Below, piece by piece: positions 7,407 through 57,693 of a stretch of 64,000 bases of DNA. Below the pieces are notes generated by a model. The model was given only the letters and a program-made list of their open reading frames with translations. It was not told the DNA's origin and searched no databases. This stretch comes from an uncultured Collinsella sp. (lineage in GTDB: Bacteria; Actinomycetota; Coriobacteriia; Coriobacteriales; Coriobacteriaceae). The DNA lies in the NCBI GenBank assembly GCA_900540875.1, contig UQHT01000004.1, forward strand, positions 28,972-92,971, written 5' to 3'. Each line of letters opens with the position of its first letter. Positions within the stretch are counted from its first letter, which is position 1. A program made the translations under genes and the position numbers.

Positions 7407-8066
7407 GTGTCCGCATTTCCGTTCGACGCCGTTATCTTTGACATGGACGGCGTCATCGTCGATACCGAGTATTACTACCTGGGAGAGACCGCTGCGTTTG
7501 CCAAAGAGCTTGGGCTGAACCTGAGTCAAGAAGATCTGAACGCGCAGGTCGGTGCCTCACACCAGTTCTTTTTGCATATGCTGGTCGATTGGTTTGAACG
7601 CGCCGGAAAGGGGCACTTTACCGGCGAGGAGGCGCTTGCCCGCTGGGACGAGTGGGCACATAAACGCCCGCGCGATTATCAGGCCCTGATTAATCCCGGC
7701 GCTGTGGAAACGATTCGCGAGCTCCCGCGTCGCGGCGTACGCGTGGCGCTGGCCAGCTCATCTTCCATGAATAGCATCGTGGAGGTGCTTGGCGCGTGCG
7801 GCCTGTCGGATGCCTTTGAGTATGTGGTGAGCGGCGAGCAGTTTAAGGAGAGCAAGCCCGAGCCCGATATCTACCTACATGCGTTGGATCTGCTGGGGCT
7901 GCCCGCGAATCGCTGCTGCTGCGTTGAGGATTCCGTTCCGGGCATTACCGCGGGTAAGCGAGCCGGCCTGACGGTGATTGCCAAGCGTGAGGAGCGCTTT
8001 GGCTTTAGCCAGGATGCCGCGGACAAGATTATCGACCAACTGCCGGAGCTGCTCACGCTTTCTTAG
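7407..8066 (+). CDS. HAD-IA hydrolase (beta-phosphoglucomutase-like phosphatase)
   Basis: FDAVIFDMDGVIVDT motif and SKPEPDIY. GTG start at 7407 with AGGGAGGG RBS. Confidence 0.8.
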   Translation: MSAFPFDAVIFDMDGVIVDTEYYYLGETAAFAKELGLNLSQEDLNAQVGASHQFFLHMLVDWFERAGKGHFTGEEALARWDEWAHKRPRDYQALINPGAVETIRELPRRGVRVALASSSSMNSIVEVLGACGLSDAFEYVVSGEQFKESKPEPDIYLHALDLLGLPANRCCCVEDSVPGITAGKRAGLTVIAKREERFGFSQDAADKIIDQLPELLTLS

Positions 8067-52820: not shown

Positions 52821-54564
52821 GGTGGACCATCTCCTCGGTAATGCGAACGATATCGGTGACCTCGCTCACCTGTGCAAAGACGGGAGAGACGGAGGATGCC
52901 AGACGATGAGAAAGCTCTATGACCTGAGGTGGCTCAACGTAGGCTTGCTGCATGAGCTCGATGTTCGAGAATAGCTCGTGCGTGCGGCCGCGGTCGAGGA
53001 TACGACCGTCGGCCATTACTACGATACGCTCGGCAAAGTCGGAAACGACTTCCATGTCGTGACAGACCATAATCACGGCGCAGCCGCGCTCGGCCATGGT
53101 GCGCACCGTTTCCATGACGGTCATGCACTCGCGGTAATCAAGGCCGCTCGTGGGCTCGTCGAGCACGACGATCTTGGGCTCAACAACTACGACGGAGGCA
53201 AGCGCCACCATTTGTCGCTGGCCGCGCGAAAGCGAGAAAGGTGCCTCATCGGCAGGCAGGCCAAAGCGGTCGATAACGAGTCGAGCGCGACGCAGAGCCT
53301 CGGCACGGTCGATGCCGGCAAGCTCCAGGCCAAAAGCGACCTCGTCGAGTACGGTATCCTTGCAGATCTGGCGGTCGGGGTTTTGGAAGAGGGTTGCGAC
53401 TTCGCGGGCGATGCGGCTCGTGGGAACGGCTGCGGTGTCCAGCCCCGTAACGCGCACGCTGCCCGAGGCGGGCTTAAGCAGGCCTGTGAGCAGCTTGGTG
53501 AGCGTGGTCTTGCCGGCACCGTTCTGGCCGACGATGCCCACGAGCTCGCCGGGATAGAGGGTCAGGTTGAGGTCGTGTACGGCGGCGCCGCCATTGGGAT
53601 AGGCAAACTCAACGTGATCGAAGGTGAGCACGGGCTCGGCGTCCTTGGCGTGCGGGCGCAACGACGGTGCATGCGGGGAGCCGGCGGGCGCCTGGGCTTC
53701 GCTGGCCGCGTGTGCGGGGTCGACAATGCCCGAAATCAGGCGCTCGGCCTCATCGACATCCAAGCAAGGGGTACCGCTTACCAGGCCATCGGCCTCGAGG
53801 CTATTGAAGATACGCGTGACGCGAGGGCAGTCGACGCCGATGGCACGGAGCTCGTCGGTATGCGCGAAGACCTCGTGTGGCTCGCCCTGCAGCGCGATTT
53901 CGCCACGGTTGAGCACGAGCACGCGGTTGCAGTACTCCGAGAGTAGGGCGACCTTTTGCTCAACGACGACGATGGTGATTCCAAGCGCGCGGTTTGCCTC
54001 ACGCAGCGTCTCGAAGACCAACGTGGAGCTGGCGGGGTCGAGTGCCGCGGTGGGCTCGTCGAGAACCAAGACGCGCGGACGCATAGCGAGGATGGCAGCG
54101 ATGGCTACCTTTTGCTTCTGTCCGCCCGAGAGGGTGGCGATCTCGCGGTCGCGCAGGTCGCTGATGCCGACGGTCTCGAGGGTTTCGGTGACGCGCTGCT
54201 CAATCTGGTCGTGCGGCACGCCAAAGTTCTCGAGGCCAAAGAGCATCTCATCCTCAACCACGGAGGCGACCATCTGCGTGTCGATATCCTGCAGCACGCT
54301 GCCGACGATTTGCGACACGTCGGTCAACGAGACCTCGCAGGTGTCGTGGCCGTCAACCATGACGGACCCAAAGAACGTGCCGGTGTAGTGGTGGGGCACG
54401 GCGCCCGACAGGCAGGCGGCAAGCGTGGACTTGCCGGCGCCCGAGGGCCCGATAATGCCGATGAAATCTCCCTTGTTCACGCTGAGTGAGATGTGGCTGA
54501 GCGCCCGCTCGGTCTGCGTGCCATAGGAGAACGAGACATCGTCGACGTTGATGATCGTTTCCAT
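52813..54564 (-). CDS. ECF transporter ATPase, fused EcfA1-EcfA2 (two ABC domains)
   Basis: Two Walker A motifs (GPSGAGKST, GQNGAGKTT) and two LSGGQ signatures in one 583-aa ORF. Confidence 0.85.
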   Translation of the reverse strand: METIINVDDVSFSYGTQTERALSHISLSVNKGDFIGIIGPSGAGKSTLAACLSGAVPHHYTGTFFGSVMVDGHDTCEVSLTDVSQIVGSVLQDIDTQMVASVVEDEMLFGLENFGVPHDQIEQRVTETLETVGISDLRDREIATLSGGQKQKVAIAAILAMRPRVLVLDEPTAALDPASSTLVFETLREANRALGITIVVVEQKVALLSEYCNRVLVLNRGEIALQGEPHEVFAHTDELRAIGVDCPRVTRIFNSLEADGLVSGTPCLDVDEAERLISGIVDPAHAASEAQAPAGSPHAPSLRPHAKDAEPVLTFDHVEFAYPNGGAAVHDLNLTLYPGELVGIVGQNGAGKTTLTKLLTGLLKPASGSVRVTGLDTAAVPTSRIAREVATLFQNPDRQICKDTVLDEVAFGLELAGIDRAEALRRARLVIDRFGLPADEAPFSLSRGQRQMVALASVVVVEPKIVVLDEPTSGLDYRECMTVMETVRTMAERGCAVIMVCHDMEVVSDFAERIVVMADGRILDRGRTHELFSNIELMQQAYVEPPQVIELSHRLASSVSPVFAQVSEVTDIVRITEEMVHRG

Positions 54565-54776
54565 GGATACCTTTCATAGTTATTGGGGACGTTCTTACAT
54601 GACTAGTCGTTTAAGAACGTCCCCAAGAGCTAGTTGTTTGGGACAGTCTTTGTTGGTGGAGTGCGGAGACGGCTTTACGAGGGGCCCCAGGTTGGCGCGA
54701 AAGAGGAGCGAAGCGTACTTGGGTACGCGAGCGACGAATGAACGCCAAGATGGGGTGGCTCATAAAGCCGAGCGGG

Positions 54777-55349
54777 TTAGTTGAGCTTCAGGGCCTTCTG
54801 GATGGGCAAGTAGAGGGCGCCGACCAGAATGGCGTTAAAGACGGCGGTCATGGCGACGACGGGCAACATGGCGGCGGCGAGCTCGCCCACCACGCCGAGC
54901 ATGGCCATCTTGATGACCATGAAGATGGCGCCGGAGACAAAGGTGGTCACGAAGGTTGCGACGATGGCGACGGCAGGCTTGACCTGACCGTTCTTGCCGG
55001 CGGCGTTGACGATGCCGGCCATGAGCATGGCGGCGATGCCCTCGGCGGCAAAATCGACGAACGGCGAAGTGGTGGTGATCTGGATCACGGCAGCCGAGAT
55101 GAGGCCAATGACGAGCGCCTGGCCGATGTTGGGGCGAACGACCAGGATGGTGAGGCAGAAGGCCGAGATGATGAACTCGGGGCTGATCATGCCGCCCGAG
55201 ATGCCCGAGATTGCCTTGCCGACGGTGAAGTTGAGGATGAAGCCGGCGGCGAGCAGGATGGCGAGCAGGACGAGGTCGCGGACATCGAGTTTGCCGCGAT
55301 CGGCGGTATGGACGGTGCGGGGCTGGGTGGCGGTGGTGTTCTGAGACAT
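54777..55349 (-). CDS. ECF transporter S component (substrate-specific; TrpP-like inferred from leader)
   Basis: A 190-aa protein with 5 to 6 TM helices. It is the first gene of the S-A1A2-T operon. AAAGGA RBS 8 nt before the ATG at 55349. Confidence 0.7.
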   Translation of the reverse strand: MSQNTTATQPRTVHTADRGKLDVRDLVLLAILLAAGFILNFTVGKAISGISGGMISPEFIISAFCLTILVVRPNIGQALVIGLISAAVIQITTTSPFVDFAAEGIAAMLMAGIVNAAGKNGQVKPAVAIVATFVTTFVSGAIFMVIKMAMLGVVGELAAAMLPVVAMTAVFNAILVGALYLPIQKALKLN

Positions 55350-55426
55350 GGTGAAAATCCTTTCGGAAGGGGATTGCAAGAGAAAAGCGGAGGCGCGTGA
55401 TGCGAATGCGATCGGGCTCGAGATAG

Positions 55427-55455
55427 AAAAAGGCCCCCGGTCGAAACCGGAGGCC
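55427..55455 (-). terminator. Strong intrinsic terminator inside the 5' leader of the ECF operon
   Basis: Minus strand reads GGCCUCCGG-UUUCGA-CCGGGGGCC followed by UUUUUCU. Confidence 0.65.
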
Positions 55456-55493
55456 TTCCAATCACCTAGAGCGCAAAAACAGGCGTGAGGGAC

Positions 55494-55562
55494 TCACTGT
55501 CGACCGATCGTATTCGCATCACGCCACCACCAGTTGTTGAGAGGTTTCATCGTGTTCTTCAT
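55494..55562 (-). CDS. Leader peptide ORF, 22 aa, with three consecutive Trp codons (MKNTMKPLNNWWWRDANTIGRQ)
   Basis: AAAGGAG 8 nt upstream of the ATG. UGG UGG UGG at 55532..55524. The ORF ends 38 nt before the terminator. Not in the ORF track because it is under 60 aa. Confidence 0.5.
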   Translation of the reverse strand: MKNTMKPLNNWWWRDANTIGRQ

Positions 55563-55689
55563 GTTGGTGGCTCCTTTCGTGATGCCGTGGCGCGGTCGCA
55601 CCTAGTTGCTGTTGCGCTGCACTATAGCACAGCGAAGTGTGTGCGGGGAAATCTTTTTTAAAAAGATTTCAGGCGGGTTTCCCGTCGGT

Positions 55690-55745
55690 CAAAAGAGCGG
55701 GCTAAGCGGGCGAGGCTGCCATTGCTGCCTCGCCCGCTCAGCTAA
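55690..55745 (-). terminator. Terminator candidate after the C69 dipeptidase gene
   Basis: Perfect palindrome AGCGGGCGAGGC-N10-GCCTCGCCCGCT, followed on the minus strand by TAGCCCGCTCTTTTG. Confidence 0.45.
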
Positions 55746-55749
55746 GACG

Positions 55750-57693
55750 TTACTCCTTATTGCGACGGTAGAGGAAGTAACCGCCTGCGGAGATGACGGC
55801 AACGCCAGCGATGGCGAATGCAGCCACCACGCGGCCATCAAAACTATCACCGGTGGTGGGCAGGCCGCCCTTGGTGTTCGTCTTGTTGGTGGTTACTGTG
55901 GTCGTGGTGTCGGACTTGCCAGGCTTCTCGGGCTTGGTGGTGGGCTGCTCGGGCTTAGCGGGCTGCTCGGGGGTACCGGGCTGCTCAGGAGTACCAGGCT
56001 GCTCGGGGGTGCCAGGCTGATCCGGGGTTACCGGGTCGGTGGCAAGAGCGTCCTTGGCGTAGGTGATGGACACCTTGAGGCCGTTGGTCTCGGTGTTCAG
56101 GTCGCTCGGGGTGAAGGGCGTGCTGAAATCCTCAGCCTTCAGATAAGCGCGCATCTCCTGGAGAAGGGCCTTGCACTTGACGTAGGTGTTCTCAGTGGCA
56201 GCCTTGCCGGCCTTGTTTGCCAGGGCGGTGCGGCCCTCAGTGGTGGTCTCGGCCTGCATAGCAGCATCGACCTCAAGGTTCTGCTCGATGAGCTCGTTCT
56301 GGAGAGCGTCGAGGTAGGCGCGAACGCCGGTGCCGAGCTGCTCGCGGTGCTCGTAGCAGAGGGAACTAATGTCCATGAGGACGTAGTTGATGGAGTTCTC
56401 GGGCTCCTCGTTGTTCACGATGTCCGTCTCTTCGCAGTGATCGTAGGAGACATCCTGATTGCTGAAGTAGGGGCTGACCTCGGTGAGCAGTGCAGAGTAC
56501 AGAGGAATAGCGACGGAGTAGGCGGCGCGGGAGAGCATCTCCCACTGAATGGTCGCGATCTCGGGGTCCATGCCCTGACGGATCTGGAAGAGGTTGGTCT
56601 CGGTGCTTCTTTCGGTGCCGATGGCGTAGACACCGTCGGTGTTGGCGTTGAGGCCGGGGACATTTTCGCCGCGGTTGCCAAATGCACGGATCATCTCAAA
56701 GGTGTTCCAGTCGGACTTGCCGGGCTTGAAGAACAGGGGCTGGATCTCGCTGACCATGGCTCCGATTTGGTCGGGGCCTTTTTCCGGTTTAACCGTGACG
56801 ATGTCGTAATCCGCACCCTTGGTCAACGGGGCCATGAAGTAATCGCGGCCCTGGACATAGCGAGTCCACTGATGAACGCCGGAATCGGCGACGCTTTTGC
56901 CATAGGTCTTGGCAACGTCGAACTTGCCGTCGGTGTACTCGGCGAAGCCATTTTTCTCGGGCATGGTCTGGATGCCCTCGGAGTGGAGGCAGTTCTCGAC
57001 GTCATCAAGGTTGACATCGTAATTGAGTCCGCCGATGTTGGGGTTGAGTGAGGCGACGTCATCGGCGAGCTTCATGGCGATCCACTGGTGGCCGGAAAGT
57101 GCGGCAAACAGCCAAGTCTCGTTGCTGTCGGCGATGATAATCTGATCGTTGCCGTTGGCGCCCTGCTCGTCGATGATCTTGCCGAGGAGCTCGACACCCT
57201 CACGTGCTTTGGCACTTTCGCCTAAGATAACGCTGCCGTAGCTATACTCGCCAATGCCAGTGTCGGTCAGGGGGTCTGCCTTGGCGGCTTTATCGTTCAT
57301 GTTGGTGGTCAGCGTTGCGGAGCAGGACACGCCCTTCTCATTGATGCCTGCCTCAGAGTAGGCATCATAGCGCCCGTGCCACTGCGAAGGATGATCGCGC
57401 ACGTAGCTATAACGATATGTAGTCTTGGTCGACCTGTATGAGAAGTCGGACTCGTCTGAGCCGTAGGTATACCCGGGGGCATGCGACGGCTCAATGCCAA
57501 AGTGCTTGAGGTAGCGCGGGCCAAAGTCCTCGGCGCGACCATAGTACGTGTTGTTGTCGGCCGTAAGGTTTTTGCCCATGTACATTTGCGTGCAGGCGAG
57601 CGCAGATGTCGGCATGGACATGATGGTCGCAGCTCCAAAGGCGAGGCCTATGCCTAGCTTCTTGAGCGCGTTGACGGGGCGAGTTTTCCTCAT
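55750..57693 (-). CDS. C69-family dipeptidase, secreted, LPXTG cell-wall anchored
   Basis: Signal peptide. ALACTQMYMGK has the Cys nucleophile right after the signal. C-terminal PGTPEQ x3 repeats, then an LPTTG sortase motif, a hydrophobic stretch and RRNKE. Confidence 0.85.
   Translation of the reverse strand: MRKTRPVNALKKLGIGLAFGAATIMSMPTSALACTQMYMGKNLTADNNTYYGRAEDFGPRYLKHFGIEPSHAPGYTYGSDESDFSYRSTKTTYRYSYVRDHPSQWHGRYDAYSEAGINEKGVSCSATLTTNMNDKAAKADPLTDTGIGEYSYGSVILGESAKAREGVELLGKIIDEQGANGNDQIIIADSNETWLFAALSGHQWIAMKLADDVASLNPNIGGLNYDVNLDDVENCLHSEGIQTMPEKNGFAEYTDGKFDVAKTYGKSVADSGVHQWTRYVQGRDYFMAPLTKGADYDIVTVKPEKGPDQIGAMVSEIQPLFFKPGKSDWNTFEMIRAFGNRGENVPGLNANTDGVYAIGTERSTETNLFQIRQGMDPEIATIQWEMLSRAAYSVAIPLYSALLTEVSPYFSNQDVSYDHCEETDIVNNEEPENSINYVLMDISSLCYEHREQLGTGVRAYLDALQNELIEQNLEVDAAMQAETTTEGRTALANKAGKAATENTYVKCKALLQEMRAYLKAEDFSTPFTPSDLNTETNGLKVSITYAKDALATDPVTPDQPGTPEQPGTPEQPGTPEQPAKPEQPTTKPEKPGKSDTTTTVTTNKTNTKGGLPTTGDSFDGRVVAAFAIAGVAVISAGGYFLYRRNKE

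Follow-up and report, generated by a model that had tools for sequence, protein, structure and literature searches.

What does a strand of RNA that is made only after a termination decision do at the codons on which that decision depends? The question is raised by a 64,000-nt stretch of DNA from an uncultured Collinsella sp. (the whole of this stretch is called the window below). An operon for an energy-coupling factor (ECF) transporter with a TrpP-like S component is preceded there by a leader open reading frame (ORF) with three tandem tryptophan codons and by a terminator, T1. A long inverted repeat connects the tryptophan codons with a segment beyond T1. A comparison of related leaders gives good support to the helix formed by this repeat being functional as RNA. 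The role preferred here is a checkpoint on transcripts that have passed T1, and it is put forward tentatively.

On the minus strand the elements are ordered as leader ORF, terminator T1, downstream arm, TrpP-like S gene, ATPase gene and T-component gene. The elements needed from the outset are the following.

55494..55562, minus strand: leader ORF MKNTMKPLNNWWWRDANTIGRQ*, 22 codons, with three UGG codons at 55532-55524
55425..55457, minus strand: terminator T1, a 12-bp GC-rich hairpin (55457-55430) with a UUCG loop and a U-run at 55431-55427 (UUUUUCU)
55504..55532, minus strand: 5' strand of the closing helix (U); the predicted pairing reaches 55532, over all three UGG codons
55388..55415, minus strand: 3' strand of the closing helix (D); CCUCCG extends the arm to 55388, opposite the UGG codons

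The arms were located by an inverted-repeat search at 55395-55415 and 55504-55524 (21 nt, 95% complementary, one mismatch, 88 nt spacing). An earlier note on this DNA had placed a repeat with arms of 22/24 nt here and had called it far beyond chance. The place and the arm sequences were recovered, the remainder of the longer arms continuing beyond a 2-nt bulge that follows the 21 nt. The chance expectation of such an arm pair in the window was 0.00 (100 dinucleotide-preserving shuffles, none with two matches). A search for the 21-mer with up to three mismatches returned only the two arm sites, and no second copy of either arm sequence was found elsewhere in the 64 kb. The RNA from 55535 to 55380 (156 nt) was folded at -81.7 kcal/mol (z = -7.85 against 200 shuffles), with the long-range helix present in both the minimum free energy (MFE) and the centroid structure. 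The statement on chance was thus borne out.

The codon placement given in the earlier note was checked on the minus-strand sequence and was correct: codon 13 (the third UGG, 55526-55524) contributes its second and third bases to the upstream arm, the other end of which falls in codon 20. The downstream arm does lie after the terminator, and the distance from its end to the S-gene Shine-Dalgarno sequence GAAAGGA (55364-55358), estimated before at about 30 nt, was measured as 27 nt. The closing helix is predicted to be 21 to 29 bp long, its 5' strand comprising 29 nt.

Further pairing potential was seen around the arms. The 3' flank of the downstream arm copies the T1 5' strand (direct repeat GCCUCCG(C/G)UUU at 55384-55394 and 55444-55454) and could also pair with the T1 3' strand, CGGGGGC. 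Inside the closing helix, T1 is flanked by a short helix, GCUC(UAGGU)/(AUCU)CGAGC (55416-55419 with 55469-55472, and flanks), so that the read-through leader is predicted as one long rod with T1 at its tip. This short helix is partly kept in the related locus L220.

Conservation of the long-range helix

Diverged leaders were gathered upstream of genes for S-protein homologues 76-87% identical to that of the window, including Olsenella uli, and are given below by locus handles of the type L220. An S-protein search of genome contigs returned 80 loci, all near-identical Collinsella, which served for microvariation only; the S protein of the window is 97-99% identical to that of 80 Collinsella species-level genomes. 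A metagenome scan with the pattern TGGTGGTGG..GGTCGGTCGA returned 120 stretches, about 9 of them real leaders and the rest chance matches in GC-rich coding DNA. Arms were scored by the complementarity of the post-terminator spacer to the leader segment bounded by the Trp codons and the stop codon, relative to dinucleotide shuffles of the spacer. RNAduplex energies were a weak test against shuffles, because the G-rich U strand pairs promiscuously with C-rich spacers, and helix-type scores were therefore used in their place.

The score of the window arm was reached by 0/500 shuffles, and its 13-bp run by 1/2000. Significant arms were also found in L220 (0/2000), L147 (0/500), L189 (0/500) and L089 (7/2000), and in L135 as an 11-bp perfect run at U9-19 that was matched by 11/2000 shuffles. 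L085 (13/500) and L191 (51/2000) were borderline, and the arm of L176 (11-13 bp, abutting T1) was not significant. No significant arm relative to shuffles was found in the Olsenella-type leaders L081, L092, L153, L214, L216, L218 and L219. Paired arms in homologous leaders, the presence of which the earlier note had taken as decisive, occur in the Collinsella-type lineages, L189 and L135, and the Olsenella-type leaders have no significant one. Where distant leaders have the arm, it again lies after the terminator, 0 to about 70 nt from the U-tract.

The covariation analysis that the earlier note had suggested was carried out on an ungapped alignment of 13 distinct arm pairs (24 pairs, 312 cells). 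Pairing was found in 88.8% of the cells, as opposed to 29-45% in slid controls. Six of the 24 helix pairs change on both sides; columns 25/60, for example, hold A-U in five sequences and G-C in six. The helix covariation score of 0.184 was reached by 0/500 shuffles. Among 81 Collinsella sequences, four kinds of single arm change were seen, one repairing the A:C mismatch, two giving G.U and one breaking a pair. The pairing of L189 (GGCGCG..CGAAACGG with CCGUUUCG..CGCGCC) and that of L135 (GCGCGAUUCGC with GCGAAUCGCGC) are in the same register with different sequence. Across the Collinsella-type lineages the downstream arm conserves CG(C/U)AUCACGCGCC(U/C)C. A rod-like closing helix was obtained for all ten arm-bearing sequences folded (nine of Collinsella type or L189, plus L135). 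In each of the nine the predicted helix spans all three UGG codons and ends at CCUCC(G/A), which accounts for the conserved GCGCCUCC motif.

These data bear on two explanations in which the repeat would have no role in RNA. One is a functionless remnant of a recent inverted duplication. The few single-base arm changes across the 81 Collinsella genomes could reflect recent common ancestry, but the compensatory changes at columns 25/60, the L189 and L135 types in the same register and the persistence of pairing across S proteins 76-85% identical make a remnant very improbable. The other is an element of the DNA, either a protein-binding inverted repeat, which the earlier note had mentioned, or an invertible phase-variable segment carrying the terminator. 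Two 21-bp inverted arms do flank an 88-bp terminator-bearing segment. All 81 Collinsella sequences are collinear, however, and the flanked segment was never inverted; the arms differ and tolerate G.U-type replacements that break DNA identity; the spacing of 88 bp, together with an arm length and an arm-terminator distance (0 to about 70 nt) that vary among lineages, disfavours a protein site; and the flanking genes checked encode a peptidase and ECF transporter components, with no recombinase. The inverton and the protein site were both rejected on the collinearity and the G.U changes, and a DNA-level role is scarcely credible. The G.U replacements and compensatory changes in relatives argue instead for a structure at the RNA level, as the earlier note had supposed.

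Alternative partners of the stall site

The upstream arm takes part in a second set of pairings, the elements of which are the following.

55482..55488, minus strand: UCACGCC (region 2), alternative partner of GGCGUGA (55525-55519) in a classical 1:2 hairpin, followed by UGUUUUUG
55500..55510, minus strand: CGAUCGGUCGA (AT element), candidate antiterminator, its 5' part shared with the upstream arm
55565..55585, minus strand: region 0, comprising the 5'-untranslated region (5'-UTR) sequence GCAUCACG (55585-55578), the Shine-Dalgarno sequence AAGGAG (55576-55571) and the spacer GCCACCA (55571-55565)

The core of the locus is a classical Trp leader-peptide attenuator, with a conserved leader and T1, a covarying 1:2 hairpin and a TrpP-type ECF operon. 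The leader start consists of the Shine-Dalgarno sequence AAGGAG, 8 nt and then ATG. Homologous leaders of the form ..N(N)WWW[RH]x6GRx* were present in every relative examined, and T1, as a GC-rich terminator with a U-tract, was likewise kept in all of them. The 1:2 hairpin is formed in the relatives by GGCG(U/C)(G/A)N, starting in the third UGG, and a segment just past the stop codon. Over 15 lineages, 88.5% of its cells were paired (slid controls, 24-57%) and three of its seven pairs change on both sides. The pairing of GGCGUGA with UCACGCC, proposed in the earlier note as an alternative fold, is accordingly real and covaries in all 15 lineages tested.

Two parts of T1 are complementary to the AT element, namely CCGGUU at the tip of the 5' strand and UCGACCGG in the apex and 3' strand, and GAUCGG:CCGGUU pairing is predicted before the T1 3' strand exists. 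CGGUCGGUCGA, complementary to both T1 strands, is the sole antiterminator candidate, and its role is inferred from this complementarity. No conserved antiterminator helix was found by RNAalifold. An Rfam scan of 54500-56500 at E <= 10 gave 21 weak matches, none to a leader family and none at the gathering score.

Leader codons 20-21, GGU-CGA (Gly-Arg, 55500-55505), were invariant in 16/16 lineages examined, and in five neighbouring genes GGU makes up 11% of Gly codons and CGA 2% of Arg codons. GGUCGA is complementary to the terminator apex UCGACC. A different layout was seen in L176 (minus strand, about 7691-7805 in reverse-complement coordinates), where only CGUAUCACGCGCC is left of the arm, immediately next to the T1 U-run. 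In its MFE structure the leader pairs with the T1 3' strand plus CGUAUCACGCGCC as an extended antiterminator and T1 is not formed. This arrangement may be the ancestral one.

Within the upstream arm, the stretch UGGUGGCGUGAUGC has three alternative partners: the 5'-UTR sequence GCAUCACG with the GCCACCA spacer, UCACGCC, and D. D is by far the most stable of them and prevails in every full-length fold. The flanks of region 0 pair with UGGUGGC and CGUGAUGC of the upstream arm in the MFE structure of the terminated transcript. Part of the downstream arm recurs as a direct copy in the 5'-UTR, as GCAUCACG. In terminated transcripts the prediction is that GCAUCACG and GCCACCA together close the start region of the leader itself. 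This 5'-UTR pairing is kept through G.U in L222 (GCAUCAUG) and L220 (GCGUCACG).

The energy needed to open the leader start of the window was calculated as 12.9 kcal/mol in the terminated RNA, 4.4 kcal/mol in the full-length RNA and 9.2 kcal/mol in the full-length RNA with D scrambled. Across lineages it was 10.8-15.4 kcal/mol in terminated and 4.4-11.0 kcal/mol in full-length RNA. L147 with D scrambled (14.9 kcal/mol) followed the same trend as the window, and the effect of D was weak in L085 and L089. A model in which D shuts off leader translation was set aside, the opening energies predicting the opposite trend.

The same numbers fit an explanation of the helix as a structural closure with a neutral or positive effect. 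D would park the G-rich stall region and the antiterminator element once the T1 decision had been made, giving a compact, nuclease-resistant leader and freeing the leader start for continued translation on the full-length mRNA. It is consistent with this that the opening energy falls in full-length RNA and rises again when D is scrambled, in both the window and L147, and that all elements are paired in the read-through MFE structure. A stabilising hairpin, however, has no need to pair specifically with the stall site; only a small effect was calculated for L085 and L089, all the calculations being purely thermodynamic; and a conserved U-run after the helix (see below) is left unexplained. A closure of this kind is regarded as rather unlikely.

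Possible roles of the closed helix

The preferred explanation, to which a probability of roughly 0.4 is given, is that the closed helix forms a second, negative checkpoint on transcripts that leaked through T1 at sufficient tryptophan. In this model a ribosome would translate the leader ORF and, when Trp-tRNA is short, would stall at UGG-UGG-UGG while RNA polymerase passes T1, as in classical attenuation. D would be transcribed only after T1 had been passed. It would pair first with the exposed CGAUCGG and then zip outward over codons 14-19 and the three UGG codons, displacing the 5'-UTR/leader start region and UCACGCC from the upstream arm. In the window and in L222, L220 and L085, its closest relatives, the helix together with the U-run that follows it would form a back-up intrinsic terminator, T2, with a 5' strand that a stalled ribosome occludes.

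When its A site holds UGG-1 to UGG-3, a ribosome covers about 55547-55514 and with it the outer 13-19 nt of the 5' strand; the size of the footprint was taken from established toeprint data and PMC4615214. The helix should therefore close fully only when no ribosome is stalled, that is, when Trp-tRNA is sufficient, and gating of the helix by the ribosome is a sound inference. A helix that forms in the sufficient state of an uptake operon would most simply be a negative element. D is made after the polymerase has left T1, so it cannot affect the T1 decision and would act on read-through transcripts only. The earlier note had held that a stalled ribosome would mask the upstream arm and so decide between alternative folds. 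The overlap of the upstream arm with the stall site stands; a role of the downstream arm in the choice of T1 folds does not. Models based on the factor Rho were discarded on grounds of logic: D would be free during starvation, the very condition in which the operon should be expressed.

The proposed T2 draws on one further element.

55378..55387, minus strand: CUUUUCUCUU, candidate T2 U-tract, directly after the helix end CCUCCG

UUUUU directly follows the helix end in L222, L220 and L085, and CCUCCG(C/U)UUUU is kept in these and in the window. In all four a GC-rich stem thus runs directly into a U-run, and conservation stops just past it. The 5' part of D would pair first and the helix would zip toward the U-run, which is the right order for the 3' strand of a terminator. 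Folds were also computed with the polymerase at the end of the U-run and with ribosomes imposed as constraints. Without a ribosome, 16.1 outer base pairs were expected. A ribosome placed on the stop codon left 13.9 of them, and stalling at UGG-1 or UGG-2 left only 4.7-7.7, with 9-13 unpaired nt between the helix and the U-run.

Several points weigh against the checkpoint, and against T2 in particular. The gating in these folds follows from the constraints imposed and is an illustration, not a proof. The U-run is absent from five helix-bearing lineages (L089, L147, L176, L189 and L191), which excludes termination at T2 as the general or the ancestral function of the helix. T2 would not be compact, its stem enclosing 88 nt including T1, and it was not reported by a terminator scan that allowed loops of 3-8 nt. 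Canonical intrinsic terminators have a short loop, and we know of none documented with a stem enclosing 88 nt. The Olsenella-type leaders without a significant arm (L081, L092, L153 and L214-L219) carry the same attenuator, so the helix is dispensable for attenuation itself. The negative sign of its effect, finally, is derived from regulatory logic only. Termination at T2 is accordingly speculative.

An extended form of the model would have one stalled ribosome gate two terminators, T1 by alternative folding and T2 by direct occlusion of the stall-site strand. Continued leader translation on the full-length mRNA would let the helix report Trp-tRNA status in real time, and only transcripts without a stalled ribosome would be switched off, by termination or by RNase III. 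This form is possible but doubtful.

RNase III could also act without a second terminator. The closed rod (the U:D helix, the GCUC/GAGC helix and the T1 hairpin) would then be an entry site that is cut when no ribosome is stalled, and the cut would detach the leader and speed the decay, or alter the stability, of the transporter mRNA. In the window the duplex is near-continuous over 21 bp with one mismatch, and up to about 27 bp with extensions, and so reaches about two helical turns (20 bp or more). Duplexes of similar length are present in L147 and L189, and the explanation suits the lineages without a U-run as well. In Escherichia coli the enzyme cuts at or next to the hisL, pheM and tnaC leader-peptide attenuators, and the transcript downstream of pheM decays faster (PMC5371410), but 10 other leader transcripts were left uncut in vitro (PMC5371410). 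Helix length is, moreover, not conserved between lineages: L085, L089 and L191 have 11 bp, an internal loop and then 4-7 bp, and L176 has 11-13 bp. An RNase III site is considered unlikely, though it deserves to be kept in view.

The start of the S gene (55335-55356, minus strand, in the window; also L085, L135, L153, L191, L214 and L216) carries CCACC(ACC), complementary to the leader UGGUGG, in some cases directly in front of the AUG (CACCACCAUG) and in others at codons 5-6 (ACC ACC). Lineages without the Thr-Thr codons carry CCACC upstream of the S gene instead.

Translational control of the S gene was considered as a role for the helix, which would clamp the UGG codons onto the CCACC-rich S start and block initiation unless a ribosome is stalled. 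In 12/14 lineages CCACC(ACC) occupies S-gene positions -7..-4 or +11..+15, and a complementary run of 5 or more was found at 2/28 background ORF starts in the window; the motif was only modestly significant relative to dinucleotide shuffles, however. In the ensembles of the window and L085 the UGG codons pair with S +12..+31 (7.2-7.5 bp expected), and a scrambled D reduces the expectation for the window to 0.01 bp and that for L085 to 2.4 bp. No such pairing was predicted in the other 11 lineages tested, L135 showing a partial one (4.7 bp) that is independent of D. Accessibility of S -18..+13 was not changed consistently by a stall or by D. Leu codons are predicted to pair with the leuA Shine-Dalgarno sequence (PMC1262725), which is a precedent, but D is not a Shine-Dalgarno box and lies 27 to about 140 nt from one. 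Control of this kind is judged improbable.

Operon context and known systems

The host genome belongs to the Collinsella aerofaciens group. The regulated genes and the probable promoter are the following.

55621..55631, minus strand: probable extended -10 promoter TGTGCTATAGT; TGnTA(T/A)AGT is kept at equal distance in relatives
54777..55349, minus strand: TrpP-like ECF S component, 190 aa, the first regulated gene, with the Shine-Dalgarno sequence GAAAGGA at 55364-55358
54564-52813, minus strand: fused ECF A-A' ATPase (TIGR04520, 461 bits; TIGR04521, 439 bits)
52820-52074, minus strand: ECF T component (CbiQ, 92.6 bits)

The S protein of the window matched Pfam TrpP at 23.8 bits, under the cutoff of 27.2, over a full-length alignment and as its sole Pfam match. 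TrpP was the only match for 13/13 aligned S-protein homologues. By this family assignment the regulated genes concern tryptophan, like the leader codons. A consensus scan gave no -35/-10 pair; the promoter is for that reason given as probable, and it would place the transcription start near 55614.

In many relatives the first S gene is followed by a second TrpP-like one in tandem, ahead of the ATPase gene (L085 3890-4435, L089 3639-4184, L216 2118-2666, and L219-L221); the window has one S gene. No second leader was found between the tandem S genes of L085, and no further leader-peptide attenuators were found in the window. Just upstream of the probable -10 box lies a perfect AT-rich palindrome, GAAATCTTTTT-A-AAAAAGATTTC, at 55648-55670; L222 shares it and more distant relatives do not. 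An operator is one possibility for it, and part of the terminator region of the upstream gene another. The product of this gene (55750-57693, minus strand) is a C69-family peptidase that has an LPXTG cell-wall anchor and, near the C terminus, a repeat of PEQPGT type; the gene's own GC-rich hairpin (about 55708-55733) precedes the leader promoter.

Literature on Trp leaders with ECF/TrpP genes, on Collinsella attenuators and on tandem or second terminators was searched and no description of this element was found. Within the literature searched, the core is a new member of the leader-peptide attenuators, the first found before an ECF TrpP transporter and the first in Coriobacteriia. A family of Trp attenuators at this position in abundant human gut bacteria bears on tryptophan sensing and competition.

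Textbook models of leader-peptide attenuation stop at the terminator. A post-terminator strand that pairs with the stall site is, to our knowledge, part of no described attenuator model (trp, his, leu). A conserved strand of this kind would add a second layer using the same sensor, which would tighten the off state or control transcripts already made, without an extra factor.

Two systems offer partial parallels. In pyrBI and pyrE attenuation of E. coli a translating ribosome physically blocks a terminator hairpin without an antiterminator; the hairpin there is local and is crossed by the leader ORF, and UTP-dependent polymerase pausing serves as the signal. In Collinsella at least 100 nt separate the occluded strand from its downstream partner, and stalling at Trp codons would provide the signal. 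In the Bacillus subtilis trp operon the trp RNA-binding attenuation protein (TRAP) uses one sensor site to control both a terminator and a post-terminator long-range refolding in read-through transcripts. That sensor is a protein bound at tryptophan excess, and its second output hairpin sequesters a Shine-Dalgarno box. The two-level control is alike in that the same sensor governs a terminator and a second refolding with a post-terminator segment.

Long duplexes within or next to leader-peptide attenuators are also known from the RNase III sites of hisL, pheM and tnaC (PMC5371410); those sites lie in the attenuator hairpins, and no post-terminator arm or ribosome gating has been described for them. 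The Sinorhizobium sRNA rnTrpL is likewise a terminated Trp leader RNA with base-pairing targets (PMC6614838), but it acts in trans on other operons, whereas the target in Collinsella is on the same transcript. The actinobacterial LEU element (Seliverstov et al. 2005, PMC1262725) comes close in that a run of regulatory codons pairs with a distant downstream segment and encloses the rest of the leader. Its partner is the leuA Shine-Dalgarno box and it has no terminator (PMC1262725); in Collinsella at least 27 nt separate the partner from the Shine-Dalgarno sequence downstream of it, and the stem encloses a strong terminator.

The nearest relatives of the core are the E. coli trp leader (RF00513) and the predicted Corynebacterium and Streptomyces trp attenuators (PMC1262725). 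These share a short ORF with tandem UGG codons, a 1:2 hairpin starting from Trp/Arg codons, a GC-rich terminator with a U-tract before the regulated genes and a ribosome stall site that overlaps region 1 (PMC4615214). The Collinsella leader differs in having no Rfam match and in controlling ECF uptake, not biosynthesis. A further difference is the strand beyond the terminator, whose partners are region 1, the Trp codons and the candidate antiterminator element. Pairing of such a strand to the stall site is absent from the actinobacterial trp attenuators described by Seliverstov et al. 2005 (PMC1262725). Should the reading with two gates be true, it would represent a new attenuator logic, in which one sensor serves two gates.

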